A stretch of DNA of 64,000 bases from an uncultured Parachlamydiaceae bacterium (GTDB lineage: Bacteria; Chlamydiota; Chlamydiia; Chlamydiales; Parachlamydiaceae): the NCBI GenBank assembly GCA_963752155.1, contig CAVVXH010000015.1, positions 1 through 64,000 on the forward strand. The letters are read 5' to 3'. Position 1 is the stretch's first letter; the number at the start of each line of letters is the position of its first letter. The translations under genes and the position numbers were made by a program. The notes under the pieces are model-generated. The model did no database searches. It was given only the letters and a program-made list of their open reading frames with translations, and had not been told where the DNA came from. Positions 3-44,892 of the stretch are shown here, in pieces.

Positions 3-581
3 ATCAAAGATTGTTCAAAAGAATTGAATCAAATGACTGACATGTTAATGAAATTACAAGAATTAGAATTGCTGATTAATAAGCGAGAAGATCTCGACCG
101 AGCATTCGACTCTGTGCACATTTCCTTGGACTCAAAAGAAAGATTTATAAGAACTATAGAAGAAAAGATCAATAAGGTCAGGTTGATCTATGGAGCAGAT
201 GATTGGAATAGACGTATTGAATTTTTGGCTGGTCGTTTAACTAATAAATCTGAGTATTTCCGCCATTATCTTCTGACTGAAGAAGATGCTAAAAAGCTAC
301 ACGAAGCAGAGGCATTAACTTTAGCTTTTAATATACTACAAGCTCCATTTTTAGATATGAGTCGTACAAGGGAATGGCTTATTTCAAATTCTTCTAGAGA
401 GTTAAGTTCATTCTTTCTTGATGTTCCGAGTGAGACTTTTACCATTTTTGATCCAAAATTCACATTTTTTGATGTAGAAGATTTAAAAGGAACATTTAAA
501 ATTCATCATGGAAAAGTAAATCAAGCTCTCATGGCAGCCACTTTGCTATTTAAGTATAAAATTGGATCAACAGGAAGATAA
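3..581 (+). CDS. Tandem GTPase paralog copy 1 (C-terminal part only; gene begins upstream of window)
   Basis: Frame is open from the window edge (IKDCSKELNQM...) and aligns with the last ~190 aa of the downstream paralogs, ending GKVNQALMAATLLFKYKI. Confidence 0.9.
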   Translation: MKDCSKELNQMTDMLMKLQELELLINKREDLDRAFDSVHISLDSKERFIRTIEEKINKVRLIYGADDWNRRIEFLAGRLTNKSEYFRHYLLTEEDAKKLHEAEALTLAFNILQAPFLDMSRTREWLISNSSRELSSFFLDVPSETFTIFDPKFTFFDVEDLKGTFKIHHGKVNQALMAATLLFKYKIGSTGR

Positions 582-591
582 AAGGAACTTT

Positions 592-3396
592 ATGGAACCA
601 ATTACTCAATATAGTATGCCTATACAGCAAGATTGCTGTTCTAGAAAAATTAAAAAATCGTTGGAGCCTTTATCCAATAGTGGAGAAGGGGTGAAAATCA
701 TCCAAGAAATCTTGATGAGGGATCTTCTTTGCCTGCACGATGTTGATCAGATAGATAAGACCTATCAACAAATATGCCTACTTGAAAGACAAGTAGAGCA
801 CATGCCAAAATGTAATACTCAACATGCTCTTAATAGTATTAACGAAAAGGTGACTTTTTGTGTGAAGGATTTCGGTAAAGATCCAGTTAAAGCCGCGAAA
901 AGCTTGATTTCGTTGTATTATTTGAAGAATTTTTCCTACAAAGATTTATCTCTCGAAAATGTCGTTTACGCATTACTTCGTGGATCGAAATGTGATGCGC
1001 GAATAATGACATGGGTTGCTCGTTACCTTCCTACATGTGGTTCAGAAGCAAAGCTTGATGAAGATATTAAATTTCTAATGAAATCTTATTCAAGTGATCA
1101 GGTAACAAAAATTTTGAATCAAAAGAAAGAGACAATACAACTCATTGACGCTAAAAAACGAGAACTAGAGAATTGGAGAGAAGGTGACCCAAAAGATTTT
1201 CCCGTCTATTTTGATGAATTGCTAGAGGATGCATGCTTTCATCTCTATGATCACATCATGGAGATGCGAAAATGGAATACCCGTAATGATCGGCAAGCTG
1301 CAATTGAGAAAAAGTCCTTTTCTCTACTCTCCCATATTGTAATTGAGACCAAACAAGCGATCATCAGGAAGATAGAAAGCTCTATCCCTAATAAATATCC
1401 CAATATTTTATTTCTATTAGGTGGTTCTGGAGCAGGTAAATCCACTACTTTCTGTTTTCTTCGCGGAGATGAAATGGTTTTGAAAGGTTTCCACTATGAA
1501 TCGAGAAAGGATAAAAATTCTCTTATCGGCCATGAACAAGCCACCTCTTGTACATTTCTGCCTACGGTTGAATTAATCAATGATTGGTTGATTGTAGATT
1601 TTCCGGGATTTGATGATAGTAATGGACCCTTTATCTCTTTGGGAATGGAATGTGCTCTAAAAGCACTGATCAGAAAACATCGACCTAAAGTTTTGATCAT
1701 TGAGTCGATCACAAATACAGAAGGTAGATTTGCAGCGGCCGCCCATCTGGGATCTCGTTTGAAACGTTTGCTGGACAAGAAAGAGGAGTGTGTATTAGGC
1801 ATTACAAAATATTCTAAGGATCCCGATTTTGGAAGAATTAGAGCCATAGAAGAGCAACAAAAAAGAGAACGATCGCTTCCAACACCTGAAGAGAATCAAC
1901 TCACAACAGAAATTAACTTGCTTTCTTCTCTAAATCAAGAAAGTTTTCAACCCATGATAAGACAAAAACAACAGCGACTTGAAGAGATACAAGAAGAAAA
2001 AGCACGGCAGCACCAAGTTCCATTGCCTGAAAATGATGAAAAAATCAACAGTAAGAAAAATCTCCAGGAAAGAGAAAATGAACTATTAAAACAAATTGGA
2101 TTAGCAAAAATTATCCGATTTGATGATTTACAAAACTCTGCGTGTTTACCTTCCTATTTTGCAGATCTCTCTCAAGGAAAAGCTCTTAACGCAAATCCCG
2201 AACATCCTTTGGATCCAGATCATGAAAAATTAATAGATCATCTATTTGAAAATAATCTGTTGGATGAATTGAAAAGGGTGAGGTATGGTGATTTTGAATT
2301 CGAGAATTTTGAACAGAGCGTGAAAGAGTCCAGCTTAATCAGCACACTTTTTTCTCAATCCCATCCAGAAATTGGAACGTTTCTCCATTTGCCAGAAATC
2401 GATCGCCGCATTGTACAAAATTATGACAAAAAAATTGTAGGAGAATGTCTCGACAAATACAAGAGATCGGTGATTCTTAATCTCGATATCTCTCTTATCA
2501 AAGTCGCACTAAAGGAAATGATAGGAATAGCAGATCCAATGTCAATTTTAGATCTTCAAAACAAATTTACTAAATTGGAAAAATATGTGATGGGCTTATT
2601 AGGAGTTGAACTGAGTGGAGATGAAAACACTGAAGAGATTGAAGCAAAATGGATTGAAAAACGAAAAGATATCGCAGCTGCTATTTCAGCCGTAGAAAAA
2701 GACTATACTTTACCTGATTGGGTAAATGTTTTGATCTCAATTCCACTTGGAATACCTAAAGGGATTCATACATTAGTTAAATGGTACGCACAAAAACAAG
2801 TGGAGAAAAAAACTATCAAAAAAATTATCAAAGATTGTTCAAAAGAATTGAATCAAATGACTGACATGTTAATGAAATTACAAGAATTAGAATTGCTCAT
2901 TAAAAAGCGAGATGATCTCGACCAAGCATTCGACTCTGTGCACATTTCTTTGGACTCAATAGAAACATTTAAAAGAACTATAGAAGAAAAGATAAATAAG
3001 GTCAGGTTGATCTATGGAGGAGATGATTGGGATAGACGTATTGAATTTTTGGCTGACAGTCTAACCAATAAATCTAAATATTTCTATTCTTGTCAGTTTG
3101 AAAGTGTGATTAAAATACTAAACGAAGCAGATATATTAATTTTAGCTTTTAATATACTAGAAGCTCCATCTGTAGATATGAGTGATGCAAGGTATATGCT
3201 TATGTTCAATTCTTCTAGAGAGTTAAGTTCATTCATAACCGATGTTTCAAGTGCTTCTAACTTTCTTTATCCAACATCCTCACTTTTTGATGATGGTTTA
3301 AAAACGGAATTTGAAGTTTATCGTGGAAAAGTAAATCAAGCTCTCATGGCAGCCACTTTGCTACTTAAGTATAAAATTAGATCAGCCGGAAGATAA
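592..3396 (+). CDS. Large P-loop GTPase (TRAFAC-like), array copy 2, ~934 aa
   Basis: G1 GGSGAGKST, candidate G2 TSCT, G3 DFPG, G4-like ITKY. Coiled coils and a hydrophobic segment WVNVLISIPLGIPKG follow. Start placed at ATG 592 (MEPITQY) after the AAGGA RBS, matching other copies. Confidence 0.85.
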   Translation: MEPITQYSMPIQQDCCSRKIKKSLEPLSNSGEGVKIIQEILMRDLLCLHDVDQIDKTYQQICLLERQVEHMPKCNTQHALNSINEKVTFCVKDFGKDPVKAAKSLISLYYLKNFSYKDLSLENVVYALLRGSKCDARIMTWVARYLPTCGSEAKLDEDIKFLMKSYSSDQVTKILNQKKETIQLIDAKKRELENWREGDPKDFPVYFDELLEDACFHLYDHIMEMRKWNTRNDRQAAIEKKSFSLLSHIVIETKQAIIRKIESSIPNKYPNILFLLGGSGAGKSTTFCFLRGDEMVLKGFHYESRKDKNSLIGHEQATSCTFLPTVELINDWLIVDFPGFDDSNGPFISLGMECALKALIRKHRPKVLIIESITNTEGRFAAAAHLGSRLKRLLDKKEECVLGITKYSKDPDFGRIRAIEEQQKRERSLPTPEENQLTTEINLLSSLNQESFQPMIRQKQQRLEEIQEEKARQHQVPLPENDEKINSKKNLQERENELLKQIGLAKIIRFDDLQNSACLPSYFADLSQGKALNANPEHPLDPDHEKLIDHLFENNLLDELKRVRYGDFEFENFEQSVKESSLISTLFSQSHPEIGTFLHLPEIDRRIVQNYDKKIVGECLDKYKRSVILNLDISLIKVALKEMIGIADPMSILDLQNKFTKLEKYVMGLLGVELSGDENTEEIEAKWIEKRKDIAAAISAVEKDYTLPDWVNVLISIPLGIPKGIHTLVKWYAQKQVEKKTIKKIIKDCSKELNQMTDMLMKLQELELLIKKRDDLDQAFDSVHISLDSIETFKRTIEEKINKVRLIYGGDDWDRRIEFLADSLTNKSKYFYSCQFESVIKILNEADILILAFNILEAPSVDMSDARYMLMFNSSRELSSFITDVSSASNFLYPTSSLFDDGLKTEFEVYRGKVNQALMAATLLLKYKIRSAGR

Positions 3397-3406
3397 AAGG
3401 AACTTT

Positions 3407-6235
3407 ATGGAACCAATTACTCAGTATAGTATACCGATACAGCAAGATTGCTGTCCTAGAAATAAAAAATCGTTGGAGCCTTTATCCAATAGTGAAGAAG
3501 GGGTGAAAATCATCCAAGAAATCTTGATGAGGGATCTTCTTTGCCTGCACGATGTTGATCAGATAGATAAGATCTGCCAACAAATAAACCTACTTGAAAG
3601 ACAAATAGAGCACATCCCAAAGTCTAATACTCAACATGTTCTTAATAGTATTAACGAAAGGGTGATTTTTTGTGTGAAGGATTTCGGTAAAGATCCAGTT
3701 AAAGACGCTAAAAGCTTGATTTCGTTGTATTATTTGAAGAATTTTTCCTACAAAAATTTATCTATCGAGAATGACTTTCACAGTATATTTGGCAAATCGA
3801 AAAGTGATTCGGAAATAATGACATGGGTTGCTCATTACCTTCCTATATGTGGTTCAGAAGCAAAGCTTGATGAAGATATTAAATTTCTAATGAACTCTTA
3901 TTTAAGTGATGACGAGGTGACAGAAATTTTGAATCAAAAAAAAGAGACAATACAAATCATTGAACCTAAAAGACTAGAACTAGAGAATTGGAGAAAAAGT
4001 AATAACCCAAAAGATTTTCCCGATTATTTTGATGAATTACTAGAAGGGACATACTTTCATCTCTATGATCACCTCATTGAAATGCGAAAATGGAGTACAC
4101 GTAATGATCGGCAAGCTGCAATCGAGAAAAAGTCCTTTTCTCTACTCTCTCATGTTGTAATCGAGACCAAGGAAGCGATCATTAGGAAGATAGAAAGCTA
4201 TATTGAAAAGATGGAAAGCTATATTCCTAATAATTATCCCAATATTTTATTTCTATTAGGTGGTTCTGGAGCAGGTAAATCCACTACTTTCTGTTTTCTT
4301 CGCGGAGATGAAATGATTTTGAAAGATTTCCACTATGAATCGAGAAAGGATAAAAATTCTCTTATCGGCCATGAGCAAGCAACCTCTTGTACATTTCTGC
4401 CTACGGTTGAACTAATCAATGATTGGTTGATTGTAGATTTTCCTGGTTTTGATGATAGCAATGGCCCCTTTATCTCTTTGGGAATGGAATGTGCTCTAAA
4501 AGAACTTATCAGAAGACATCGACCTAAAGTTTTGATCATTGAGTCGATCACAAATACAGAAGGTAGATTTGCAGCGGCAGCCCATCTGGGATCTCGTTTG
4601 AAACGTTTGCTGCGCAAGAAAGAGGAGTGTATATTAGGCATTACAAAATATTCTAAGGATTCCGATTTTGGGAAAATTAGAGCAATAGAAGAGCAACAAA
4701 AAAGGGAGCGATCGCTTCCAACACCAGAAGAAATTCAACTCACAGCAGAAATTAACTTGCTTTCTTCTCTGAATCAAGAAAGTTTGCAACCAATGATACA
4801 ACAAAAACAACAACAACTTGAGAAGATACAAAATGAAAAAGCGAGACAGCAGCAACTTCCATTACCTGAAAATGATGAAAAAATCAAAAGTAAGAAAAAT
4901 CTCCAGGAAAGAGAAAATGAACTATTAAAACAGATTGGATTAGCAAAAATTATCCGATTTGACGATTTACATGATTCTGCGTGTTTACCTTCCTATTTTG
5001 CAGATCTTTCTCAAGGAAATGCTCTTAACGCAAATCGCGAAAACCCTTTGGATCCAGATCATGAAAAATTAATAGATCATCTATTTGTAAATGATCTGTT
5101 GGATGAAATGAAAAGGTTGAAGTATGGTGATTTTAAATTCAAGAATTTTGGACAGAGGGTGAAAGAGTCCAGCTTAATTAGCACACTATTTTCTCAATCC
5201 CATCCAGAAATTGGAACGTTTCTCCATTTGAAAGAAATCGATCCTCGCATTGTACGAAATTATGACATAAAAATTGTAGGAGAATGCCTCGACAAATACA
5301 AGAGATCGGTAATTCTTAATCTCGATATCTCTTTTATGAAAGTCGCACTAAAGGAAATGAAAGGAATAGCAGATCCAATGGTAGTTTTAGATCTTCAAAA
5401 CAAATTTACTAAATTGGAAAAATATGTGATGGGCTTATTAGGAGTTGAACTGAATGGAAATGAAAACACTGAAGAGATTGACGCAAAATGGATTGAGAAA
5501 CGAAAAGATATCGCAGCTGCTGTTTCAGCTGTAGAAAGAAAGTATACTTTACCTGATTGGGTCAATGTTTTGATCACAATTCCACTTGGAATACCTAAAG
5601 CGATTCATACATTAGTTAAATGGCGCGCACAAAAACAAGTGGAGAAAGAAACTATCGAGAAAATTATTAAAGATTGTTCAAAAGAATTAAATCAAATGTA
5701 TGTCATGTTAATGAAATTACAAGAAGTAGAGTTGGTGATTAAAAAGCGAGAAGATCTCGACCAGGCATTCGAATCTGTGCATATTTCTTTGGTCTCAATA
5801 GAAACATTTATAGGAACTATAGAAGAAAAGATCAATAAGGTCAGGTTGATCTATGGAGCAGAAGATTGGGATAGACGCATTGAATTTTTGGCTGGTATTT
5901 TAACTACATCTAAACGTATCAATCGTTTTTTTGATAATTTAGAAGAGGCTAAAAAGCTAAACAAAGCAGAGACATTAACTTTAGTTTTTAATATACTAGA
6001 AAATCCATTAAATAAAATGATTCATGTAAGAAGACAGCTTATTTTAGACTCTTGTCCAGAGTTAAGTTCATTCATTCAGGATGGTTCGAGAAAGCCTTCC
6101 AACCTTCTCAATTTAAAAGCCACGTATTCCATTTTCTTAAAACATAAATTTAACTTTGATCATGGAAAAGTAAATCAAGCTCTCGTGGCAGCAGCTTTGC
6201 TATTTAAGTATAAAATTGAATCAACGGGAAGGTAA
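3407..6235 (+). CDS. Large P-loop GTPase, array copy 3, 942 aa
   Basis: Same motifs as copy 2; 10-nt spacer aaggaacttt after the previous stop; small 7-aa duplication (RKIESYI/EKMESYI). Confidence 0.85.
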   Translation: MEPITQYSIPIQQDCCPRNKKSLEPLSNSEEGVKIIQEILMRDLLCLHDVDQIDKICQQINLLERQIEHIPKSNTQHVLNSINERVIFCVKDFGKDPVKDAKSLISLYYLKNFSYKNLSIENDFHSIFGKSKSDSEIMTWVAHYLPICGSEAKLDEDIKFLMNSYLSDDEVTEILNQKKETIQIIEPKRLELENWRKSNNPKDFPDYFDELLEGTYFHLYDHLIEMRKWSTRNDRQAAIEKKSFSLLSHVVIETKEAIIRKIESYIEKMESYIPNNYPNILFLLGGSGAGKSTTFCFLRGDEMILKDFHYESRKDKNSLIGHEQATSCTFLPTVELINDWLIVDFPGFDDSNGPFISLGMECALKELIRRHRPKVLIIESITNTEGRFAAAAHLGSRLKRLLRKKEECILGITKYSKDSDFGKIRAIEEQQKRERSLPTPEEIQLTAEINLLSSLNQESLQPMIQQKQQQLEKIQNEKARQQQLPLPENDEKIKSKKNLQERENELLKQIGLAKIIRFDDLHDSACLPSYFADLSQGNALNANRENPLDPDHEKLIDHLFVNDLLDEMKRLKYGDFKFKNFGQRVKESSLISTLFSQSHPEIGTFLHLKEIDPRIVRNYDIKIVGECLDKYKRSVILNLDISFMKVALKEMKGIADPMVVLDLQNKFTKLEKYVMGLLGVELNGNENTEEIDAKWIEKRKDIAAAVSAVERKYTLPDWVNVLITIPLGIPKAIHTLVKWRAQKQVEKETIEKIIKDCSKELNQMYVMLMKLQEVELVIKKREDLDQAFESVHISLVSIETFIGTIEEKINKVRLIYGAEDWDRRIEFLAGILTTSKRINRFFDNLEEAKKLNKAETLTLVFNILENPLNKMIHVRRQLILDSCPELSSFIQDGSRKPSNLLNLKATYSIFLKHKFNFDHGKVNQALVAAALLFKYKIESTGR

Positions 6236-6245
6236 AGGGAATTTT

Positions 6246-9068
6246 ATGGAACCAATTATGCCGATACAGCAAGATTGCTTTTCTAGAAATAAAAAATCGT
6301 GGGTGCCTTTTTCCAATATTGAAGAAGGGGTGAAAATCATCCAAGAAATCTTGATGAGAGACCTTCTTTGCCTCCACGATGTTGATCAGATGGATAAGAT
6401 CTGTCAACAAATAAACCTACTTGAAAGACAAATAGAGCACGTCCCTAAGTCTAATACTCAACATGTTCTTAATAGTATTAACGAAAGGGTGATTTCTTGT
6501 GTGAAGGATTTCGGTAAAGATCCAGCTAAAGACGCGAAAAGCTTGATTTCGTTGTATTATTTGAAGAATTTTTCCTACAAAAATTTATTTATTGAGAATG
6601 ACTTTCACAGTTTATTTTGTGAATCGAAAAATAATCCGCAAATTATGACAAATATTGCTCTTTACCTTCCTACATGTGGCTCAGAAGCAAATCTTGATGA
6701 AGATATTAAATTTCTAATGAGCTCTTATTCAAGTGATCAAGTAACAAAAATTTTGAATCAAAAGAAAGAGACAATACGAATCATTGAAGCAAAAAAACTA
6801 GAACTAGAGAATTGGAGAAAAAGTAACCCAAAAGATTTTCCCGTCTATTTTGATGAATTACTAGAAGGAGCATGCTTTCATCTCTATGATCACATCATTG
6901 AGATGCGAAAATGGAGCACCCGTAATGATCGGCAAGCTGCAATCGAGAAAAAGTCTTTTTCTCTACTCTCCCATATTGTAATTGAGACCAAACAAGCGAT
7001 CATTGAGAAGATAGAAAGCTCTATTCCTAATAATTGTCCTAACATTTTATTTTTATTAGGTGGCTCTGGAGCAGGTAAATCCACTACTTTCTGTTTTCTT
7101 CGCGGAGATGAAATGATTTTGAAAGATTTCCACTATGAATCGAGAAAAGATAAAAATTCTCTTATCGGCCATGAGCAAGCAACCTCTTGTAAATTTCTGC
7201 CTACGGTTGAATTAATCAATGATTGGTTGATTGTAGATTTTCCTGGTTTTGATGATAGTAATGGCCCCTTTATCTCTTTGGGAATGGAATGTGCTCTGAA
7301 AGCACTTATCTCAAGACATAAACCTAAAGTTTTGATCATTGAATCGATCACCAATATAGAGGGTAGATTTGCAGCGGCAGCCCAACTGGGATCTCGTTTG
7401 AAACGTTTGCTGGACAAGAAAGAGGAGTGTGTATTAGGCATTACAAAATATTCTAGGGACCCAGATGTTGGGAAAATTAGAGCAATAGAGGAGCAACAAA
7501 AAAGAGAGCGATCGCTTCCAACACCAGAAGAAAATCAACTCACAACAGAAATTAACTTGCTTTCTTCTCTAAATCAAGAAAGTTTTCAACCAATGATAAG
7601 ACAAAAACAACAGCGACTTCAGGAGATACAAGAAGAAAAAGCGCGGCAGCACCAAGTTCCATTGCTGGAAAATGATGAGAAGGTCGAGAGTAGGAAAAAT
7701 CTCCAGGACAGAGAAAATGAACTATTAAAACAGATTGGATTAACAAAAATTATCCGATTTGATGATTTACAAAACTCTGCGTGTTTACCTTCCTATTTTG
7801 CAGATCTCTCTCAAGGAAAAGCTCTTAACGCGAATCCTGAACATCCTTTGGATCCAGATCATGAAAAATTAATAGATCATTTATTTGAAAATAATCTGTT
7901 GGATGAATTGAAAAGGGTGAAGTATGGTGATTTTAAATTCGAGAATTTTGAACAGAGCGTGAAAGAGTCCAGCTTAATCAGCACACTTTTTTCTCAATCC
8001 CATCCAGAAATTGGAACGTTTCTCCATTTGCCAGAAATCGATCGCCGCATTGTACGAAATTATGACAAAAAAATTGTAGGAGAATGTCTCGAAAAATACA
8101 AGAGATCGGTGATTCTCAATCTCGATATCTCTCTTATCAAAGTCGCACTAAAGGAAATGAAAGAAATAGCAGATCCGATGGAAATTTCAAAGCTTCACAG
8201 CCAATTTACTAAATTGGAAAGATATGTAATGGGCTTATTAGGAGTTGAACTGAATGGAAATGAAAACACTGAGGAGATTGAAGTAAAATGGATTGAGAAA
8301 CGAAAAGATATCGCAGCTGCGGTTTCAACTGTAGAAAAAGAGTATACTTTACCTAATTGGGTAAATGTCTTGATCACAATTCCACTTGGAATACCTAAAG
8401 GAATTCATACATTAGTTAAATGGTACGCACAAAAACAAGTGGAGAAAAAAACTATCAAAGAAATTATCAAAGATTGTTCAAAAGAATTGAATCAAATGTA
8501 TCATATGTTAATGAAATTACAAGAATTAGAATTGCTGATTAAAAAGCGAGAAGATCTCGACCAAGCATTCGACTCTGTGCACATTTCTTTGGACTCATTA
8601 GAAACATTTAAAAGAACTATAGAAGAAAAGATCAATAAGGTCAGGTTGATCTATGGAGGAGATGATTGGGATAGACGTATTGAATTTTTGGCTGACAGTC
8701 TTAATAAATTTAAATATATCAGTCCTCTTTTTCAGACCGAAAGAATGATTAAAATGAACGAAGCAGATACATTAACTTTAGCTTTTAATATACTAGAAGC
8801 TCCATCTGTAGATATGAATAGTGCAAGGGAAATGCTTATTTTAATTTCTTCTAGAGAGTTAAGTTCATTCATGATCGATGTTTCAAGTAAGGCTTTTACC
8901 TATCTTAATCCAAATTTCAAATATTTTGATGCAGCATTAAAAATGAAATTTAAAATTCATCATGGAAAAGTAAATCAAGCTCTCATGGCAGCCACTTTGC
9001 TACTTAAGTATAAAATTGGATCAATCGGAAAACAAAAGGAAATTTATGGAACCAATTACTCAATATAA
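6246..9068 (+). CDS. Large P-loop GTPase, array copy 4
   Basis: Same motifs; ATG at 6246. The ancestral stop TAA appears changed to CAA, so the ORF runs into the start of copy 5. Confidence 0.85.
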   Translation: MEPIMPIQQDCFSRNKKSWVPFSNIEEGVKIIQEILMRDLLCLHDVDQMDKICQQINLLERQIEHVPKSNTQHVLNSINERVISCVKDFGKDPAKDAKSLISLYYLKNFSYKNLFIENDFHSLFCESKNNPQIMTNIALYLPTCGSEANLDEDIKFLMSSYSSDQVTKILNQKKETIRIIEAKKLELENWRKSNPKDFPVYFDELLEGACFHLYDHIIEMRKWSTRNDRQAAIEKKSFSLLSHIVIETKQAIIEKIESSIPNNCPNILFLLGGSGAGKSTTFCFLRGDEMILKDFHYESRKDKNSLIGHEQATSCKFLPTVELINDWLIVDFPGFDDSNGPFISLGMECALKALISRHKPKVLIIESITNIEGRFAAAAQLGSRLKRLLDKKEECVLGITKYSRDPDVGKIRAIEEQQKRERSLPTPEENQLTTEINLLSSLNQESFQPMIRQKQQRLQEIQEEKARQHQVPLLENDEKVESRKNLQDRENELLKQIGLTKIIRFDDLQNSACLPSYFADLSQGKALNANPEHPLDPDHEKLIDHLFENNLLDELKRVKYGDFKFENFEQSVKESSLISTLFSQSHPEIGTFLHLPEIDRRIVRNYDKKIVGECLEKYKRSVILNLDISLIKVALKEMKEIADPMEISKLHSQFTKLERYVMGLLGVELNGNENTEEIEVKWIEKRKDIAAAVSTVEKEYTLPNWVNVLITIPLGIPKGIHTLVKWYAQKQVEKKTIKEIIKDCSKELNQMYHMLMKLQELELLIKKREDLDQAFDSVHISLDSLETFKRTIEEKINKVRLIYGGDDWDRRIEFLADSLNKFKYISPLFQTERMIKMNEADTLTLAFNILEAPSVDMNSAREMLILISSRELSSFMIDVSSKAFTYLNPNFKYFDAALKMKFKIHHGKVNQALMAATLLLKYKIGSIGKQKEIYGTNYSI

Positions 9069-11838
9069 TATGCCTATACAGCAAGATTGCTGTTCTAGAA
9101 AAATTAAAAAATCGTTGGAGCCTTTATCCAATAGTGGAGAAGGGGTGAAAATTATCCAAGAAATCTTGATGAGGGATCTTCTTTGCCTGCACGATGTTGA
9201 TCTGCTCGATAAGACCTATCAACAAATATGCCTACTTGAAAGACAAGTAGAGCACATACCAAGCTGTAACCCTCAACATGTTCTTGATAGTATCAAAGAA
9301 AGGATAGTTTCTTGTGCAGAGTATTTCGGTGAAGATTCAATTAAAGACGCAAAAAGCTTGATTTCGTTGTATTATTTGAAGAATTTTTCCTACAAAAATT
9401 TATCTATCGAGAATGACTTTTACGCATTAATTCGTAGATCGGAATGTAATGCGCGAATAATGACAAATATTGCTCGCTTCCTTCCTACATGTGGCTCAGA
9501 AGCAAATCTTGATGAAGATATTAAATTTCTAATGAGCTCTTATTCAAGTGATCAAGTAACAAAAATTTTGAATCAAAAGAAAGAGACAATACGAATCATT
9601 GAAGCAAAAAAACTAGAACTAGAGAATTGGAGAAAAAGTAACCCAAAAGATTTTCCCGTCTATTTTGATGAATTACTAGAAGGAGCATGCTTTCATCTCT
9701 ATGATCACATCATTGAGATGCGAAAATGGAGCACCCGTAATGATCGGCAAGCTGCAATCGAGAAAAAGTCTTTTTCTCTACTCTCCCATATTGTAATTGA
9801 GACCAAACAAGCGATCATTGAGAAGATAGAAAGCTCTATTCCTAATAATTGTCCTAACATTTTATTTTTATTAGGTGGCTCTGGAGCAGGTAAATCCACT
9901 ACTTTCTGTTTTCTTCGCGGAGATGAAATGATTTTGAAAGATTTCCACTATGAATCGAGAAAAGATAAAAATTCTCTTATCGGCCATGAGCAAGCAACCT
10001 CTTGTAAATTTCTGCCTACGGTTGAATTAATCAATGATTGGTTGATTGTAGATTTTCCTGGTTTTGATGATAGTAATGGCCCCTTTATCTCTTTGGGAAT
10101 GGAATGTGCTCTGAAAGCACTTATCTCAAGACATAAACCTAAAGTTTTGATCATTGAATCGATCACCAATATAGAGGGTAGATTTGCAGCGGCAGCCCAA
10201 CTGGGATCTCGTTTGAAACGTTTGCTGGACAAGAAAGAGGAGTGTGTATTAGGCATTACAAAATATTCTAGGGACCCAGATGTTGGGAAAATTAGAGCAA
10301 TAGAGGAGCAACAAAAAAGAGAGCGATCGCTTCCAACACCAGAAGAAAATCAACTCACAACAGAAATTAACTTGCTTTCTTCTCTAAATCAAGAAAGTTT
10401 TCAACCAATGATAAGACAAAAACAACAGCGACTTCAGGAGATACAAGAAGAAAAAGCGCGGCAGCACCAAGTTCCATTGCTGGAAAATGATGAGAAGGTC
10501 GAGAGTAGGAAAAATCTCCAGGACAGAGAAAATGAACTATTAAAACAGATTGGATTAACAAAAATTATCCGATTTGATGATTTACAAAACTCTGCGTGTT
10601 TACCTTCCTATTTTGCAGATCTCTCTCAAGGAAAAGCTCTTAACGCGAATCCTGAACATCCTTTGGATCCAGATCATGAAAAATTAATAGATCATTTATT
10701 TGAAAATAATCTGTTGGATGAATTGAAAAGGGTGAAGTATGGTGATTTTAAATTCGAGAATTTTGAACAGAGCGTGAAAGAGTCCAGCTTAATCAGCACA
10801 CTTTTTTCTCAATCCCATCCAGAAATTGGAACGTTTCTCCATTTGCCAGAAATCGATCGCCGCATTGTACGAAATTATGACAAAAAAATTGTAGGAGAAT
10901 GTCTCGAAAAATACAAGAGATCGGTGATTCTCAATCTCGATATCTCTCTTATCAAAGTCGCACTAAAGGAAATGAAAGAAATAGCAGATCCGATGGAAAT
11001 TTCAAAGCTTCACAGCCAATTTACTAAATTGGAAAGATATGTAATGGGCTTATTAGGAGTTGAACTGAATGGAAATGAAAACACTGAGGAGATTGAAGTA
11101 AAATGGATTGAGAAACGAAAAGATATCGCAGCTGCGGTTTCAGCTGTAGAAAAAGAGTATACTTTACCTAATTGGGCCAATGTTTTGATCTCAATTCCAC
11201 TTGGAATACCTAAAGCGATTCATACATTAGTTAAGTGGTACGCACAAAAACAAGTGGAGAAAAAAACTATCGAAAAAATTATCAAAGATTGTTCAGAAGA
11301 ATTGAATCAAATGTATGAGATGTTAATAAAATTACAAGAATTAGAATTGCTAGTTAAAAAACGAGAAGATCTGGACCAAGCTTTCGAATCTGTGAAAATT
11401 TCTTTGGACTCAATAGAAACATTTATAGGAACTATAGAAGAAAAGATCAACAAGGTCAGGTTGATCTATGGAGGAGATGATTGGGATAGACGTATTGAAT
11501 TTTTGGCAGATAATTTAACTAATAAATTTAAACATTTCAATTATTTTTTAAAGCTAAACAAAGCAGAGGCATTAATTTTAGCTTTTAATATACTAGTAAC
11601 TCCATACGTAAATATGAATTATGCAAAGAAATATATTATTTTAAATTCTTCTAGCGAGTTAAGTTCATTCATTCAAGATGTTCCGAGTAAGACTTTTGGC
11701 TTGCTTAATCCGGATATCATTGATCTTAATTTTAGCTTGTTTAATCCAGAATTCAAAATTCATGATGGAAAAGTAAATCAAGCTCTCATGGCAGCCACTT
11801 TCCTCCTTAAGTATAAAATTGGATCAACCAGAAGATAA
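9046..11838 (+). CDS. Large P-loop GTPase, array copy 5
   Basis: Same motifs; ATG at 9046 after AAGGA; central part apparently identical to copy 4. Confidence 0.85.
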   Translation: MEPITQYNMPIQQDCCSRKIKKSLEPLSNSGEGVKIIQEILMRDLLCLHDVDLLDKTYQQICLLERQVEHIPSCNPQHVLDSIKERIVSCAEYFGEDSIKDAKSLISLYYLKNFSYKNLSIENDFYALIRRSECNARIMTNIARFLPTCGSEANLDEDIKFLMSSYSSDQVTKILNQKKETIRIIEAKKLELENWRKSNPKDFPVYFDELLEGACFHLYDHIIEMRKWSTRNDRQAAIEKKSFSLLSHIVIETKQAIIEKIESSIPNNCPNILFLLGGSGAGKSTTFCFLRGDEMILKDFHYESRKDKNSLIGHEQATSCKFLPTVELINDWLIVDFPGFDDSNGPFISLGMECALKALISRHKPKVLIIESITNIEGRFAAAAQLGSRLKRLLDKKEECVLGITKYSRDPDVGKIRAIEEQQKRERSLPTPEENQLTTEINLLSSLNQESFQPMIRQKQQRLQEIQEEKARQHQVPLLENDEKVESRKNLQDRENELLKQIGLTKIIRFDDLQNSACLPSYFADLSQGKALNANPEHPLDPDHEKLIDHLFENNLLDELKRVKYGDFKFENFEQSVKESSLISTLFSQSHPEIGTFLHLPEIDRRIVRNYDKKIVGECLEKYKRSVILNLDISLIKVALKEMKEIADPMEISKLHSQFTKLERYVMGLLGVELNGNENTEEIEVKWIEKRKDIAAAVSAVEKEYTLPNWANVLISIPLGIPKAIHTLVKWYAQKQVEKKTIEKIIKDCSEELNQMYEMLIKLQELELLVKKREDLDQAFESVKISLDSIETFIGTIEEKINKVRLIYGGDDWDRRIEFLADNLTNKFKHFNYFLKLNKAEALILAFNILVTPYVNMNYAKKYIILNSSSELSSFIQDVPSKTFGLLNPDIIDLNFSLFNPEFKIHDGKVNQALMAATFLLKYKIGSTRR

Positions 11839-11847
11839 AGGAACTTT

Positions 11848-13068
11848 ATGGAACCAATTACTCAATATAGTATGCCGATACAGCAAGATTGCTGTTCAAG
11901 AAAAAGAAGAAGATCGTGGATGCCTTTTTCCAATATTGAAGAAGGGGTGAAAATCATCCAAAAAATCTTGATGAGAGACCTTCTTTGCCTGCACGATGTT
12001 GATCAGCTCGATAAGACTTATCAACAAATATGCCTGCTTGAAAGACAAGTAGAGCACATCCCAACATGTAATACTCAACATGTTCTTGATAGTATCAAAG
12101 AACGGGTGATTTCTTATTTGAAGGATTTCGGTAAAGATCCAGTTAAAGACGCGAAAAGCTTGATCTCGTTGTATTATTTGAAGAATTTTTCCTACAAAAA
12201 TTTACCTATCGAGAACGAATTTAACAAAGTATTTGGTAAATCGAAAAGTGATTCGGAAATAATGACATATACTGCTCTTTACCTTCCTACATGTGGTTCA
12301 AAAGCAAGGCTTGATGAAGATATTAAATTTCTAATTAATTCTTATTCAAGTGACGAGGTGACAAAAATTTTGAATCAAAAGAAAGAGACAATACAAATCA
12401 TTCAAGCTGAAAAACTAGAACTAGAGCATTGGAGAAAAAATAACCCAATAGATTTTCCCGAATATTTTGATGAATTACTGGAGGGTACATACTTTCATCT
12501 CTATGATCACATCATTGAGATGCGAAAATGGAGTACCCCTCATGATCGGCAAGCTGCAATCGAGAAAAAGTCCTTTTCTCTACTCTCTCATGTTGTAATT
12601 GAGACCAAACAAGCGATCATTAGGAAGATAGAAAACTCTATTCCTAATAATTGTCCTCACATTTTATTTCTATTAGGTGGCTCTGGAGCAGGTAAATCCA
12701 CTACTTTCTGTTTTCTTCGCGGAGATGAAATGGTTTTGAAAGGTTTCGACTATGAATCGAAAAGAGATAAAAATTCTCTTATCGGCCATGAACAAGCAAC
12801 CTCTTGTACATTTCTGCCTACGGTTGAATTAATCAATGATTGGTTGATTGTAGATTTTCCTGGTTTTGATGATAGTAATGGCTTCTTTATCTCTTTGGGA
12901 ATGGAATGTGCTCTAAAAGCACTGATCAGAAAACATCAACCTAAAGTTTTGATCATTGAATCGATCACAAATACAGAAGGTAGATTTGCAGCGGCAGCCC
13001 AACTGGGATCTCGTTTGAAACGTTTGCTGGACAAGAAAGAGGAGTGTGTATTAGGCATTACAAAATAA
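11848..13068 (+). pseudogene. Truncated GTPase paralog, copy 6 (406 aa, ends at the G4-like ITK)
   Basis: Homology to the other copies stops abruptly at ITK-stop. The downstream DNA is unrelated to the GTPase gene, so this is a deletion/rearrangement rather than a point nonsense change. Confidence 0.8.
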
Positions 13069-13105
13069 TCCTTATGATGCACAACCAGACATGAGCGATG
13101 ACAGT
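13066..13105 (+). pseudogene. Relic of the 3' part of the Gly/Tyr-rich secreted protein gene
   Basis: taatccttatgatgcacaaccagacatgagcgatgacagt (NPYDAQPDMSDDS) matches 20212-20260 (NPYPDAQSQPGMSDDS). Confidence 0.7.
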
Positions 13106-13131
13106 CAAATGCAAGATCAGACTCTGAACAT

Positions 13132-13214
13132 CAGCAATTCCCATGCCTGAAAAATTAGCGTAATTTAGGAAAATTATCACCTCTCTTGTAAAAATCCTTT
13201 AACGGGAATTGCTG
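13132..13214. repeat. 83-bp element bounded by 11-bp inverted repeats (MITE/REP-like)
   Basis: cagcaattccc (13132-13142) ... gggaattgctg (13204-13214). Confidence 0.5.
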
Positions 13215-13331
13215 GAAAACACCGAAAAATAAATTGCAAGAAAAAATAAAAAGTTATATGTATTCAGAGATTAAATAAATATTCATTCATATGAAATTCT
13301 TCCATTACAAAAGAACAAAGAAGGAAATTCC

Positions 13332-16130
13332 ATGGAACCAATTAGTATACCAACGCAGCAAGATGGCTGCTCTAGAAATAAAAAATTATTGGAGCCTTTA
13401 TCCAGTATTGAAGAAGGGGTAAAAATCATCCAAAGAATCTTGATGAGAGACCTTCTTTGCCGACACGATGTTGATCAGCTCGATAAAATCTATCAACAAA
13501 TATGCCTGCTTGAAAGGCAAGTAGAGCACATCTCTAAATCTAATACTCAACATGTTCTTAATAGTATCAAAGAAAGGGTGATTTCTTGTGTGAAGGATTT
13601 TGATAAAGATCCAGTTAAAGACGCGAAAAGCTTGATTTCGTTGTATCATTTGAAGAATCTTTCCTACGAAAATTTATCTATTGAGAATGATCTTGACACT
13701 TTATTTAATCAATTGAAAAATAATTCGCACATCATGACAAACATTGCTCTTCACCTTCCTACATGTGGTTCAGAAGCACAGTTTGATGAAGATATTCAAT
13801 TTCTAATTAATTTTTGTTCAAGTAATCAGGTAACAAAAATTTTGATTCAAAAGAAAAAAGCAATACAAATTATTAAAACTAAAAAACTAGAACTAGAGAA
13901 TTGGAGAAAAAGTAACCCAATAGATTTTCCCGATTATTTTGATGAATTACTAGAGGGTGAATACTTTCATCTCTATGATCACATCATTGAGATGCGAAAA
14001 TGGAGTACTCGTAATGATCGACAAGCTGCAATCGAGAAAAAGTCCTTTTCTCTACTCTCTCATGTTGTTATCGAGACTAGGGAAGCAATCTTTAGAAAGA
14101 TAGAAAACTCTATTCCTAATAACTGTCCTCAGATTTTATTTCTATTAGGAGGCTCCGGAGCAGGTAAATCGACTACTTTTTGTTTTCTTCGCGGAGATGA
14201 AATGGTTTTGCAAGGTTCCAACTATGCATCGAAAAGAGATAAAAATTCCCTTATCGGGCATGGGCAAGCAACCTCTTGTACATTTCTCCCCACGGTTGAA
14301 CTCGTCAAAGATTGGTTGATTGTAGATTTTCCTGGTTTTGATGATAGTCATGGCCCCCTTATCTCTTTGGGAATGGAGTGTGCTCTAAAAGCACTTATCA
14401 GAAAACATCAACCTAGAGTTTTGATCATTGAGTCGATCACAAATACAGAAGGTAGATTTGCAGCGGCAGCCCAACTAGGATCTCGTTTAAAACGTTTGCT
14501 GGCCAAGAAAGAGATGTGTGTATTAGGGATTACAAAATATTCTAAGGATCCCGATTTTGGAAAAATTAGGGCAATTGAAGAGCAACAAAAAAGGGAGCGA
14601 TCGCTTCCAACACCTGAAGAAAATCAACTCGCAACAGAAATTAACTTGCTTTCTTCTCTGAATCAAAAAAGTTTACAACCGATGATACAACAAAAACAAC
14701 AACAACTTGAGAAGATACAAAATGAAAAACCGCGACAGCAGCAACTTCCATTACCTGAAAATGATGAAAAAATCAAAAGTAAGAAAAATCTCCGGGAAAG
14801 AGAAAATGAACTACTCAAGCAAATTGGATTAACAAAAATTATCCGATTTGACGATTTGCAAAACTCTGCATGTTTATCTTCCTATTTTGCAAATCTCTCT
14901 CAAAGAGAAGCTCTTAACGCCAATCCCGAAGATCTTTTAGATCCAGACGATGAAAAATTAATAGATCATCTATTTGTAAATGATCTGTTGGATAAAATGA
15001 AAAAGGTGAAATATGGTGATTTTGAATTCGAGAATTTTGACCAGAGCGTGAAAGAGTCCAGCTTCATCAGCACACTATTTTCTCAATCTTATCCAGAAAT
15101 TGGAACGTTTCTCCATTTGCCAGGAATCGATCTCCGCATTGTACGAAACTATGACAAAATAATTGTAGGAGAATGTCTCGAAAAATACAAAAAATCGGTG
15201 ATTCTTAAACTCGATATCTCTCTTATCAAAGTCGCACTAAAAGAAATGAAAGAAATAGCACATCCAATCGCCATTTTAGATCTTCAAAACAAATTTACTA
15301 AATTAGAAAAATATGTGATGGGCTTATTAGGAGTTGAACTAAGTGGAAATGAAAATACAGAAGAGATTGAAGCAAAATGGATTGAGAAACGAAAAGAGAT
15401 CGGAGCTGCTGTTTCAGCTGTAGAAAAAGAGTATATTTTACCCGATTGGGCTAATGTTTTGATCACAATTCCACTTGGAATACCTAAAGCGATTCATACA
15501 TTAGTTAAATGGTACGCACAAAAACAAGTGGAGAAAAAAACTATCGAGAAAATTATCAACGATTGTTCAGAAGAATTGAAACAAATGTATGACATATTAA
15601 TGAAATTACAAGAATTAGAATTGCTGATTAAACAGCGAGAAAATTTCGACCAAGCATTCGAATCTATGCAAATTTCCTTGGTATCACAAGTAGCATTCTT
15701 AAAAAGCATAGAAGAGAGGATCAATAAGATCAGGTTAATCTATGGAGGAGATGATTGGGATAGACGAATTGAATTTTTAGATGATAATTTAACTAAGACT
15801 GAAGAATGGATTAAAAAGCTAAACGAAGTACAGATGTTAACTTTAATTTTTAATATACTAGAATTTCCATCTGAAGAAATGGGTCAGGTAAGGAGACGGC
15901 TCCTTTCAAATTCTTCTAGAAGTTTGAGGTCATTCTTTCAGCTTTCAGATCTGGGTGAATCTCTTGCCCTTTTTAATCTAACATTCTCATATCCTGAAGC
16001 AGAAAAATTAAAAATAAAATTTAAAGTTCATCAGGGAAAAGTAAATCAAGCTCTCCTGGCAGCCATTTTGTTTCATAAGTATAAAATTGGATTACCCAGA
16101 GCACTAAGGGAACTTTATGGAATCAAATAG
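13332..16130 (+). CDS. Large P-loop GTPase, array copy 7, 932 aa
   Basis: Same motifs; has its own AT-rich upstream region and AAGGA RBS; C-terminus reads through into the next start. Confidence 0.85.
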   Translation: MEPISIPTQQDGCSRNKKLLEPLSSIEEGVKIIQRILMRDLLCRHDVDQLDKIYQQICLLERQVEHISKSNTQHVLNSIKERVISCVKDFDKDPVKDAKSLISLYHLKNLSYENLSIENDLDTLFNQLKNNSHIMTNIALHLPTCGSEAQFDEDIQFLINFCSSNQVTKILIQKKKAIQIIKTKKLELENWRKSNPIDFPDYFDELLEGEYFHLYDHIIEMRKWSTRNDRQAAIEKKSFSLLSHVVIETREAIFRKIENSIPNNCPQILFLLGGSGAGKSTTFCFLRGDEMVLQGSNYASKRDKNSLIGHGQATSCTFLPTVELVKDWLIVDFPGFDDSHGPLISLGMECALKALIRKHQPRVLIIESITNTEGRFAAAAQLGSRLKRLLAKKEMCVLGITKYSKDPDFGKIRAIEEQQKRERSLPTPEENQLATEINLLSSLNQKSLQPMIQQKQQQLEKIQNEKPRQQQLPLPENDEKIKSKKNLRERENELLKQIGLTKIIRFDDLQNSACLSSYFANLSQREALNANPEDLLDPDDEKLIDHLFVNDLLDKMKKVKYGDFEFENFDQSVKESSFISTLFSQSYPEIGTFLHLPGIDLRIVRNYDKIIVGECLEKYKKSVILKLDISLIKVALKEMKEIAHPIAILDLQNKFTKLEKYVMGLLGVELSGNENTEEIEAKWIEKRKEIGAAVSAVEKEYILPDWANVLITIPLGIPKAIHTLVKWYAQKQVEKKTIEKIINDCSEELKQMYDILMKLQELELLIKQRENFDQAFESMQISLVSQVAFLKSIEERINKIRLIYGGDDWDRRIEFLDDNLTKTEEWIKKLNEVQMLTLIFNILEFPSEEMGQVRRRLLSNSSRSLRSFFQLSDLGESLALFNLTFSYPEAEKLKIKFKVHQGKVNQALLAAILFHKYKIGLPRALRELYGIK

Positions 16131-16566
16131 AATGCCGATACAGCAGGTCATAGAAATCTTTATAAGAACTATAAAAGAAAAGATCAATAAGGTAAAGTTG
16201 ATCTATGGAGCAGGTGATTGGGATAGACGTATTGAATTTTTGGCTGGTAATTTAACTGAAGAACAGACTAAAAAGCTAAACGAAGCAGAGGTATTAACTA
16301 TAGCTTTTAATATATTGGCATTTCCATTTAGTGGAATGAATGATACAAGGAAATGGCTGGTTTTAAATTCTTCTAGAGAGCTAATTTCATTCATTCTGAA
16401 TGCTCCGCATAGGACTGTTACCATTTTTAATCCATTTCGATTCACATATGATGTAGAAGAATTAAAAGAAAAATTCAAAGTTCATTATGGAAAAGTAAAT
16501 CAAGCTCTCATGGTAGCCACTTTGCTATTTAAGTATAAAACGGGCTCCCAATCGGAATACCTTTAG
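16117..16566 (+). CDS. Stand-alone C-terminal variable domain of the GTPase family (internally deleted paralog, 149 aa)
   Basis: Family-type start (aaggaactttATG, MESNRMPIQQ) fused in frame to IEIFIRTIKEKINKV...GKVNQALMVATLLFKYK. Confidence 0.75.
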   Translation: MESNRMPIQQVIEIFIRTIKEKINKVKLIYGAGDWDRRIEFLAGNLTEEQTKKLNEAEVLTIAFNILAFPFSGMNDTRKWLVLNSSRELISFILNAPHRTVTIFNPFRFTYDVEELKEKFKVHYGKVNQALMVATLLFKYKTGSQSEYL

Positions 16567-16680
16567 GTATCTATATGTTAAGAACATGGAAAGCACAAGG
16601 AAAAGTAGAAGAAGAAGCTATCGACAGAGTTAGAAGAAATACATTTCATTAATCAAAATAGAATTAGAACAATTGGTTAG

Positions 16681-16747
16681 AAATGAATATATTATAATTA
16701 CGGTGATCGTTATGGAGGATATGGTGGGTATGGAGGGTATGCTGGAT
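16681..16747 (+). pseudogene. Relic of the middle part of the Gly/Tyr-rich secreted protein gene
   Basis: Translates YYNYGDRYGGYGGYGGYAG versus YYNYGDHYGGYGGYGQYGG...YAG in 19979-20308; no start or signal peptide. Confidence 0.7.
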
Positions 16748-16940
16748 GCAGAAATTTTAACTTTGCTTTAACAGCTCATAGAATTTCGCTCGTAGAATTT
16801 TGCTTGCAAATAATTTACATTTGTTATAAGTTTCACCTAGGTGTTCGTGAGATTGACCGATCAAAATTTAACGGAATTTTGCCGTCATAGAATTTAAAGT
16901 TAAAGTAAGTAATACTTTTAACAAAATAATAGGTCTAATT

Positions 16941-43881: not shown

Positions 43882-44892
43882 ATGGAACCAATAGGTTTTT
43901 TTACACCAGTATACGTGAATTCCAAAAATAATGACGCAACTTTTTTCCAAAAATTTGTTATTAATCCGGCAGAATTCATTTTTGACTTTGACAATATTCG
44001 TTTTTCGATCCCACCGAAAGAAAAAATGTATGCCACTATTTCTGATGAAAGTAGAACTTTCTGCCAAACTACTTTTCAATGCATCACTTTAGTAGCGGTC
44101 TCTATCTTCTTCCCCCTTGGAATGGCGTTATTTGGTGCAAAAATCTATCATAGATTTGATGAATATTTCCAACCTGATCCCCTTGAAGCAGACTATCCTG
44201 AATTAGCAGCTTCAGACTTAGAGAATTTGCAAACTAAAGGACGCGATTTTGGCTTTAGATCCCTTTCAGGATTTAGTTTTCGTCGAGAGAATGACTACAT
44301 TAGGGCTGATAAAATAGAAAGGGAAACTTCTAAAGTAAAAGAAAATGTAAGTCTGTTAGATTCTCTAATAAAAAATAAACAGAAAACAAATGAGCAAATT
44401 ATTGAGGAGCTGAAAGCTGAGCCAGATTTGATTAATGAATCTGCTAAAGAATATAAAATTCATTTTATGCCTAAAGTAGATTATGCTGAAGTTACATTAC
44501 AAAAAATCCTAAATCTTTTCAGAAATAACCCTAGACTAAAAAAATTGCTTAAACAATATAAAATATTATTAAAAAATCTTGAAACAAATGATTTTCCAAA
44601 TGATAAGAGTGCCAATGGAGGGGAATTTCCTAGAATTGTTTTGTATGTAGAAGGCAAAGTGGCTGCTCAATTAGTTCTTAATGCTGTATTTAATCTTTTC
44701 ACACAAGAAGAGGCTGCAACTTATGGATGTGATATTACTCCGAGGCTGAATGCAAAAGTAAATCCATTGATATTTTATGCTCAAGGAGCAGGCGGCTACA
44801 AAGAACGAGCTCTAAACCGAGGCTTGGATTATTTTTTAACAGCTGATGGAATACATTTTAAAGGTGATAATCATCCCCTAGTTATTCCTTAA
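43882..44892 (+). CDS. Hypothetical effector-like protein with DUF648-like hydrophobic N-terminus
   Basis: AGGAG RBS; GFFTPV start, hydrophobic hairpin ending AKIYHRF; C-terminal domain of unknown function. Confidence 0.6.
   Translation: MEPIGFFTPVYVNSKNNDATFFQKFVINPAEFIFDFDNIRFSIPPKEKMYATISDESRTFCQTTFQCITLVAVSIFFPLGMALFGAKIYHRFDEYFQPDPLEADYPELAASDLENLQTKGRDFGFRSLSGFSFRRENDYIRADKIERETSKVKENVSLLDSLIKNKQKTNEQIIEELKAEPDLINESAKEYKIHFMPKVDYAEVTLQKILNLFRNNPRLKKLLKQYKILLKNLETNDFPNDKSANGGEFPRIVLYVEGKVAAQLVLNAVFNLFTQEEAATYGCDITPRLNAKVNPLIFYAQGAGGYKERALNRGLDYFLTADGIHFKGDNHPLVIP

Follow-up and report, generated by a model that had tools for sequence, protein, structure and literature searches.

A tandem array of GTPase-fold paralogs with copy-specific blocks in the C-terminal module of an uncultured Parachlamydiaceae bacterium

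How does a bacterium come to carry a series of tandem genes that are nearly identical over most of their length and yet differ from copy to copy at one end? The question is raised by a stretch of 64,000 nucleotides from an uncultured Parachlamydiaceae bacterium (GenBank assembly GCA_963752155.1, here genome G000; contig CAVVXH010000015.1, here C15; positions 1 to 64,000), which as a whole is called the window below. From the contig end to about 19.6 kb, the window is occupied by a head-to-tail array of paralogs of ~935 amino acids, all on the plus strand. The copies, which were located by open-reading-frame (ORF) listing and MAFFT alignment, have a GTPase-fold body and a C-terminal module of the last ~120 residues, in which a frame RRIEFL / FNIL / S..L.SF / GKVNQAL is split by three copy-specific blocks, V1, V2 and V3. 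Seven of these C-terminal domains lie within the window and nine across the genome (the other two on contig C10); the family has 11 matches in G000.

We found that V2 and V3 are under positive selection for amino-acid replacement, next to a GTPase-fold core that is under purifying selection and gene bodies that undergo conversion. On balance, and by a modest preference, we read the array as a diversified repertoire of host-directed effectors, in which positively selected V2 and V3 are borne by conversion-homogenised GTPase-fold paralogs.

Frame and variable blocks of the C-terminal module

The original prediction on this DNA, made from its letters, described a common frame in all seven C-terminal domains of the window. 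A relaxed regular expression for the whole frame recovered it in seven of seven, as did RRIEFL and FNIL taken singly (7/7 each), while the stricter forms SS.EL.SF and GKVNQAL.A..L..KYK were each present in five of seven, copies c2 and c6 deviating from the former and c4 and c6b from the latter. The five V1 strings that had been quoted were all found, each in a single copy, and the span given for the blocks (3050-3330) holds V1, V2 and V3 of copy c1. The claim that the three blocks vary in sequence and length stood for the sequence of all three and for the length of V1 and V3; it did not stand for the length of V2, which is gapless among the seven window copies.

Joining the nine domains of G000 with eight from a close relative, for which proteins only were available, gave 17 domains. 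No two of them have the same V1, V2 or V3 (17 of 17 distinct for every block), and the mean pair identity of the blocks is 0.26-0.34, whereas the four frame segments have mean pair identities of 0.53-0.93; this contrast between blocks and frame is far beyond chance. Despite many insertions and deletions, all of them in frame, the open frame is kept in nine of nine modules. Distant homologs retain the frame as YG..DWD.R..FL, LL.YAYLLIEP and L.RAL.AAALLK, with fillings that cannot be aligned, and other distant homologs stop before the module or have leucine-rich repeats (LRR) in its place. A profile of the nine modules matched 71 proteins among 1.84 billion representatives, and in 64 of the 71 the best stretch does not reach beyond profile position 118; most of these stretches end at ~80-85, which is before or within V1.

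A 246-base contig from a soil metagenome (run X1, depth ~2) matches positions 3010-3234 of the window and carries the RRIEFL and S..L.SF islands, with 131 different bases between them where c1 has 152. Because this contig joins both islands with a different filling, an environmental relative appears to share the island-and-block layout.

Structure prediction gave a helical picture of the module. For the full-length protein (model from the 78-row alignment A1), the mean predicted local distance difference test score (pLDDT) was 81.8 and the predicted template modelling score (pTM) 0.80, with low confidence at residues 827-835 and 886-900, in V1 and V3. Modelled alone (189 amino acids, 47-row alignment A2), the module reached a pLDDT of 89.3 and a pTM of 0.84 with nine helices and no strands, and the lowest-confidence stretches again coincided with V1 and V3. 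In these models V1 takes in the end of a helix together with one short loop and one short helix, V2 consists of a loop and a helix (863-873), and V3 of a helix end, a loop and a helix (895-906). The blocks had been likened to the loops of complementarity-determining regions; in the models they are not pure loops but partly helical, the variation falling on short loops and also on helix ends and on short helices in their entirety. No convincing relative of the fold emerged: the best VIA-align score among 48,161 chains was Z 4.9, below the chance level for helical bundles, and the ESM Atlas gave no usable match for the module.

Selection and gene conversion along the array

Codon alignments were derived from protein alignments, and the site models M0, M1a and M2a (GY94 type) were fitted with our own script on trees from IQ-TREE (GTR+F+G4); the implementation was validated by same-family controls and five simulations only. 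Nei-Gojobori sliding windows over seven full copies gave a nonsynonymous divergence (dN) of ~0.03-0.10 and a synonymous divergence (dS) of ~0.06-0.34 in the gene body, and a dN of 0.42-0.55, a dS of 0.25-0.41 and a ratio of 1.35-1.89 over the module. For the module (157 codons, nine copies), the dN/dS ratio (omega) under M0 was 1.19, and the log-likelihood rose from -2560.98 under M1a to -2521.61 under M2a, a likelihood-ratio test statistic (LRT) of 78.7, with 11% of sites in a class with omega2 of 9.3. Gap-free alignments gave an M0 omega of 1.24 and an LRT of 66.7 (eight copies, 118 codons), or 1.10 and 59.2 (nine copies, 102 codons). Among the control regions of the same proteins, the NTPase region (232 codons) had an M0 omega of 0.32 and an LRT of 0, the middle region (344 codons) an omega of 0.585 and an LRT of 5.2 (p 0.07), and the N-terminal region (192 codons) an omega of 0.89 and an LRT of 20.6. 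Null data sets simulated from M1a as fitted, on an unchanged tree and with the gaps kept in place, never exceeded an LRT of 1.6 (5/5). The core had been called almost invariant; in figures, this amounts to copies that are ~86-100% identical in nucleotides and an omega of 0.32.

Block by block, the signal is concentrated in V2 and V3. Over 28 non-independent pairs of eight copies, dS and dN were 0.37 and 0.45 in V1, 0.20 and 0.57 in V2, 0.39 and 0.58 in V3, and 0.18 and 0.12 in the pooled frame segments; in V2 the proportion of nonsynonymous differences exceeded that of synonymous ones in 28 of 28 pairs. The dS of V2 resembles that of the core, ~0.17. With its own tree for each partition, V2 gave an LRT of 28.5 (M0 omega 3.0) and V3 an LRT of 49.1, both significant. 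By naive empirical Bayes posteriors, which ignore parameter uncertainty, 11 sites exceed 0.95 (c1 numbering: 839, 861, 865, 869, 883, 890, 895, 896, 897, 902 and 905), and the residues at these sites show radical changes of charge and size; all 11 sites fall within the span 3050-3330. The diversifying selection that the original prediction had proposed is thereby borne out for V2, for V3 and for the whole module, and not for V1 alone. V2 and V3 do not combine a dN/dS at or below 1 with an equally raised dS, as V2 makes plainest (dS 0.20 vs dN 0.57): the excess lies in amino-acid change and not merely in age. V1 is compatible with neutral change plus insertions and deletions.

The gene bodies have another history. 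Copies c3 and c4 are 100% identical in nucleotides over 13 consecutive 40-codon windows (c1 residues 161-680, ~1.56 kb), which correspond to ~6.72-8.28 kb of the window in c3 and ~9.53-11.09 kb in c4. Outside this stretch their identity is 84-91% on the upstream side and 78-96% on the downstream side, with a drop towards the 3' end and 78-93% in the C-terminal part, and other pairs of copies show a mosaic of identities. The identity of c3 and c4 indicates recent gene conversion or partial duplication; in principle it could also be an artefact or a collapse of the assembly. The frame segments are conserved even at synonymous sites (dS 0.06-0.15), and a comparison of the two related genomes gives an identity of 85-92% for the bodies and just 59-74% for the best C-terminal match. 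Given the c3/c4 identity, the mosaics and the low dS of the frame, we infer repeated sweeps of conversion during which the V blocks stayed different.

Several candidate sources of the variation were tried and rejected. A diversity-generating retroelement would need a reverse transcriptase, and PF00078 (RVT_1) had no match in G000, which is 80% complete, whereas the control matched in three of 14 named genomes; a search by blastn for a template repeat, with the c1 module DNA against the genome, returned the nine paralogous modules only. Silent cassettes of the vls or pilS type were likewise absent beyond the nine modules, in a genome that is incomplete and an array that runs off its contig. Shuffling of cassettes finds no counterpart in the 17 domains, no two of which have a V1, V2 or V3 in common, and compensated frameshifts find no support as the source of the blocks, since the nucleotide alignment shows in-frame insertions and deletions plus point differences. 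A polymorphic toxin system, with unrelated C-terminal toxin domains and an immunity gene after each, does not fit modules that all have the same scaffold frame, with no small ORF between copies. In this 80% complete genome there is no sign of a dedicated mutator.

A second, weaker patch of variation lies in the N-terminal helical domain of c1 (ENVVYALLRGSKCDARIMTWVARY, ~residues 115-140), with a local dN/dS of 1.2-1.4, and the same place is variable in other copies. By eye it occurs as a few discrete types that recur across copies and in the related organism, unlike the C-terminal blocks; the patch of c2 is identical to that of P0003 of the related organism.

The GTPase-fold body, a host-directed reading and its rivals

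The original prediction had labelled the core a GTPase, a label that is supported by similarity of fold and not by any match to a family model. In VIA-align, the G domain came closest to GIMAP2 (Z 14.6 over 183 residues with a root-mean-square deviation of 4.0, and Z 14.1), Toc34 (Z 14.0, 187 aligned), GIMAP4 (Z 14.0) and GIMAP7 (Z 13.9), followed by Arf/Arl proteins (Z 12.4-13.6); because the Arf-type scores lie within about one Z unit of those of GIMAP and Toc34, the sub-clade is not separable. The G1 P-loop GGSGAGKST is found in all copies, with G282, K283, S284 and T285 nearly invariant among 78 sequences, and the G3 motif DFPG is present, with D336 invariant and G339 nearly so in the same set. 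The canonical G4 motif for guanine specificity is [NT]KxD. At this position the family has TKYS, without the Asp in fourth place, T405 and Y407 being invariant and K406 nearly so. In Pfam, neither the full protein nor the module reached the cut-off of any family, AIG1 included, and the sub-threshold P-loop matches were RsgA_GTPase (15.7 bits, cut-off 30) and ABC_tran (15.9 bits, cut-off 25). NCBIfam gave nothing above cut-off, a profile search of PDB sequences (A1) gave P-loop noise only (E >= 0.05), and PADLOC (5027 models, 2023 library) gave no family at E up to 1 for two proteins. Foldseek with the whole model returned no row at E <= 0.001; its top rows were IRG proteins (Irga6, Irgb6, GM4951) and a bacterial dynamin-like protein, at E values of 6e-3 to 5e-2 and query-normalised TM-scores of 0.13-0.15. 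The first ~23 residues were modelled as disordered, and the start of the family is retained in c6b; a disordered and retained start would fit a type III secretion signal, a suggestion drawn from the model.

The distribution of the family is narrow. A word-indexed search of 5.8 billion proteins yielded 77 homologs, and the few that are named belong to Chlamydiota (Parachlamydia sp. AcF125, 'Chlamydiota bacterium' and Candidatus Rhabdochlamydia); some homologs carry ankyrin plus patatin, PARP, USP, LRR, TPR or DUF4116 domains. The family was matched in three of 40 relatives and, with a 569-aa query at E <= 1e-10, in 12 out of 300 further genomes from the phylum, with one to four matches each when four candidates at most were scored per genome. 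A large array was found only in G000 and in one close relative, which has at least 10 copies on one 32.7-kb contig. From these searches, the family appears confined to Chlamydiota and rare there. Among the sequencing runs listed there was one match, a soil metagenome in the form of contigs that shared 0.05 of the words, and no run of RNA; four short soil-metagenome contigs of depth 2-3, 80-99% alike, derive from relatives. Full-text literature searches, in which PMC4209131 was covered without its supplements, returned no published description of the family.

Several known systems invite comparison. GIMAP-like GTPase effectors are noted in the text of PMC3417536 for the amoeba symbiont Amoebophilus, which is, like the present organism, an intracellular bacterium of eukaryotes. 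With proteins of the GIMAP/AIG1/Toc34 type, the array proteins share the fold of the G domain, the P-loop and DxxG, and the embedding of the G domain in helical extensions; they differ from them in lacking an AIG1 match, in having TKYS as G4, in their size of ~935 amino acids and in adding N-terminal, middle and C-terminal helical domains of their own. The IRG proteins and the bacterial dynamin-like protein also combine a G domain with helical domains, but the Foldseek matches to them are weak and there is no sequence relation. Among the Parachlamydiaceae themselves, the expanded families NEX1/2 and PEX1/2 are described (Domman et al. 2014, PMC4209131) as type-III-secreted proteins in which F-box, BTB or CHAT domains are joined to LRR or TPR repeats. 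The present array resembles them as a lineage-specific tandem array of amoeba-associated chlamydiae, with signs of birth and death (truncated copies, different copy numbers between relatives) and modular variable ends. It differs from them in its GTPase body, the words NTPase, GTPase and P-loop being absent from the main text of PMC4209131, supplements apart, and in copies that lack a ubiquitin-related domain with LRR or TPR repeats, although some distant homologs have USP, LRR or TPR. It differs also in selection: for these four largest families, the text of PMC4209131 reports M0 dN/dS values of 0.29-0.63 with no support for positive selection, and because only purifying selection was found there, an arms-race explanation was left in doubt, whereas the module of the array has an omega of 1.19 and a strongly supported class with omega > 1. 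The SPRYSEC proteins of nematodes, unlike in fold, organism and delivery route, may serve as an analogy only, that of a family which has expanded on one constant fold and diversified in a few patches. Fast-evolving, tandemly expanded effector families are already a known kind, and amoeba-associated chlamydiae are marked by large gene families specific to their lineages; the novelty here lies in the GTPase body, in the helical module, itself new, and in a clear, localised omega > 1 beside an actively homogenised body.

How would such a repertoire work? Gene conversion keeps the bodies of the genes nearly identical, along with the four segments of the frame, synonymous sites included, and positive selection for replacement has driven V2 and V3 apart in every copy. 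The C-terminal module would be the partner-binding end, with V2 and V3 setting its specificity, and the array would amount to a germline repertoire of specificities. The proteins would most likely enter the cell of the eukaryotic host, and the GTPase body may do one job there at differing targets; this direction towards the host is suggested because the family is restricted to one phylum, because its homologs have fusion partners of eukaryotic type and because published views agree with it. Then 11 sites and two blocks of ~16 and ~30 residues should decide the binding of each copy, and the family would be a tractable entry to how an obligate intracellular bacterium diversifies its host-directed specificities. 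It may also inform the relation of bacterial GIMAP-like GTPases to eukaryotic immune GTPases. A bolder version, which we regard as doubtful, sees a germline-encoded repertoire resembling that of immune receptors, with a constant GIMAP/IRG-like body that conversion keeps uniform, with V2 and V3 on a new helical fold kept diverse by selection, and with each copy aimed at a different member of a polymorphic family of host proteins; were it true, the targets might be immune or membrane-trafficking GTPases of the host, mimicked or poisoned.

A number of observations weigh against a host-directed, selected repertoire. The codon analyses use nine sequences of one genome with an incomplete assembly. 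The dS of V1 and V3 (~0.37-0.39) is twice the core value, so part of their divergence is extra age or misalignment. The tree topologies differ among the three block partitions, so recombination inside the module is likely, and recombination can push up the statistics of site tests; the core, which recombines equally, nevertheless gave no selection signal. The V1 partition alone was not significant (LRT 5.3, p 0.07) and fits neutrality. The window copies carry no eukaryote-like Pfam domain. As to a single exposed face, the selected sites 861, 865 and 869 are spaced i, i+4 and i+8, a periodicity without statistical support, and in none of six helices did a variability-moment test for helical periodicity reach significance (p 0.15-0.82). 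The rival explanations are taken here in descending order of the weight that we give them. Relaxed constraint with escape from conversion, by which blocks too diverged to convert would drift neutrally on a folding frame, can draw on the reality of gene conversion, on the 57-68% of module codons that M1a and M2a place at omega = 1, on V1 and the doubled dS just mentioned, and on the truncated or rearranged copies in the array (c5, c6b, c7 and fragments). We nevertheless judge it unlikely: neutrality predicts an omega of ~1 and not a class at 5.8-15, V2 combines a core-like dS with a tenfold higher dN, the M1a simulations stayed far below the observed LRT, and all nine modules are open with every insertion and deletion in frame. 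About equally unlikely, in our view, is an insulation of paralogs, in which the module would mediate self-assembly, the interface would change after duplication to stop co-assembly, and the patches would recognise self. Positive selection at an interface suits this explanation as well as it suits target recognition. GIMAP, Toc34 and IRG-type GTPases, the nearest folds, work as dimers or oligomers. No sign of self-association came up, though no search was aimed at it. Homologs with LRR or other partner-binding domains instead of the module, or with no module at all, suggest on the other hand an exchangeable, outward-facing end.

The remaining two explanations we hold for improbable in different degrees. 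An array of bacterial immune sensors, with an NTPase switch, a variable C-terminal sensor for phage or invader proteins and, in some homologs, an N-terminal effector such as patatin, would account for the architecture of an NTPase plus a fast-evolving C-terminal helical domain and for the patatin or PARP domains of some homologs. It is made improbable by the PADLOC result (0/2 proteins) and by the NTPase fold, which is that of a TRAFAC GTPase and not of a STAND ATPase. Tenfold tandem arrays are not known to be usual among defence genes. The fusion partners (ankyrin, USP, LRR, TPR, DUF4116) are, moreover, typical of host-directed chlamydial proteins, to judge from the text of PMC4209131. Programmed hypervariation, in which a diversity-generating retroelement or a recombination of silent cassettes would rewrite the three blocks, is suggested by the DNA picture of invariant islands around variable blocks, by the free-standing module c6b and the fragments in the array, and by the soil-metagenome contig that joins two islands with a filling of another length. 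Yet it is the explanation to which we give very little credence, for the genome, 80% complete, has no RVT_1 match, blastn found no silent cassettes, the 17 domains have no V block in common, and the most similar pairs are set apart by point substitutions that are scattered and show a nonsynonymous excess.

Layout of the array and neighbouring genes

The features of the array are collected in the table. Since c0 is cut by the start of the contig, the array extends past the window. Consecutive copies are spaced by ~10 bases, with just an AAGGAA ribosome-binding site and the next ATG, and no small ORF between them.

Table. Coordinates of the array copies and of the regions of copy c1 in the window (residues in c1 numbering)
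Feature	Position	Strand	Description
c0	3-581	+	C-terminal 192 aa only; own V1-V3; cut at contig edge
c1	592-3396	+	full copy, 934 aa from MEPITQ; listed ORF begins at TTG 562
N-terminal variable patch, c1	934-1011	+	~residues 115-140; weaker excess of amino-acid change
G domain, c1	1387-2211	+	~residues 266-540; P-loop GGSGAGKST, DFPG, TKYS
C-terminal module, c1	3028-3393	+	WDRRIEFL to end; helical frame bearing V1-V3
V1, c1	3052-3117	+	residues 821-842; length 10-23 aa (17 domains); mainly insertion/deletion variation
V2, c1	3160-3207	+	residues 857-872; gapless among window copies; selected sites 861, 865, 869
V3, c1	3235-3324	+	residues 882-911; length 11-36 aa; selected sites 883, 890, 895-897, 902, 905
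c2	3407-6235	+	full copy; C-terminal region (from IKDCS) 5666-6232
c3	6246-9068	+	full copy; C-terminal region 8466-9065
c4	9046-11838	+	full copy; C-terminal region 11281-11835
c5	11848-13068	+	truncated, 406 aa; stop inside G domain; followed by 264 family-unrelated bases
c6	13332-16130	+	full copy; C-terminal region 15555-16127
c6b	16117-16566	+	free-standing C-terminal module; intact 149-aa frame; 14-base overlap with end of c6
c7	16941-19646	+	different N-terminus (DUF4116); common G domain and middle region; ends before C-terminal module

In c6b, the start of the family (ME..MPIQQ, ~10 residues) is fused straight onto a complete C-terminal module. Because the family start joins the module directly, c6b is a derivative by internal deletion, and it may be expressed as a free-standing module. 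In c3 (9030-9068) and in the C10 copy x1, the usual TAA stop reads CAA, so that their frames run on for 11 residues (…QKEIYGTNYSI), over the ribosome-binding site and start of the next copy. By blastn, the spacers after c5 (13069-13331) and after c6b (16567-16940) have no relation to the family; inspected by eye, they contain pieces resembling a Gly/Tyr-rich ORF (19955-20308) and the degraded end of a copy of the c7/P0018 type. Such remnants point to repeated rearrangement of the array.

An ORF with ankyrin repeats and a patatin domain lies beside copies x1 and x2 on the minus strand of C10 (positions 2-1687), where it is cut by the contig end. The protein P0018 of the related organism (1346 aa) has the same ankyrin-patatin N-terminus fused to a GTPase body without the C-terminal module. 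Further along the window, a 1294-aa ORF (44907-48791) and the 336-aa ORF that precedes it (43882-44892) are both without a Pfam match at E <= 1e-5. Finally, a 440-aa leucine-rich-repeat protein is encoded at 25806-27128 on the minus strand, amid housekeeping genes (plsX-like, RNase E/G, LytB), and is of the sort that is expanded in Parachlamydiaceae.

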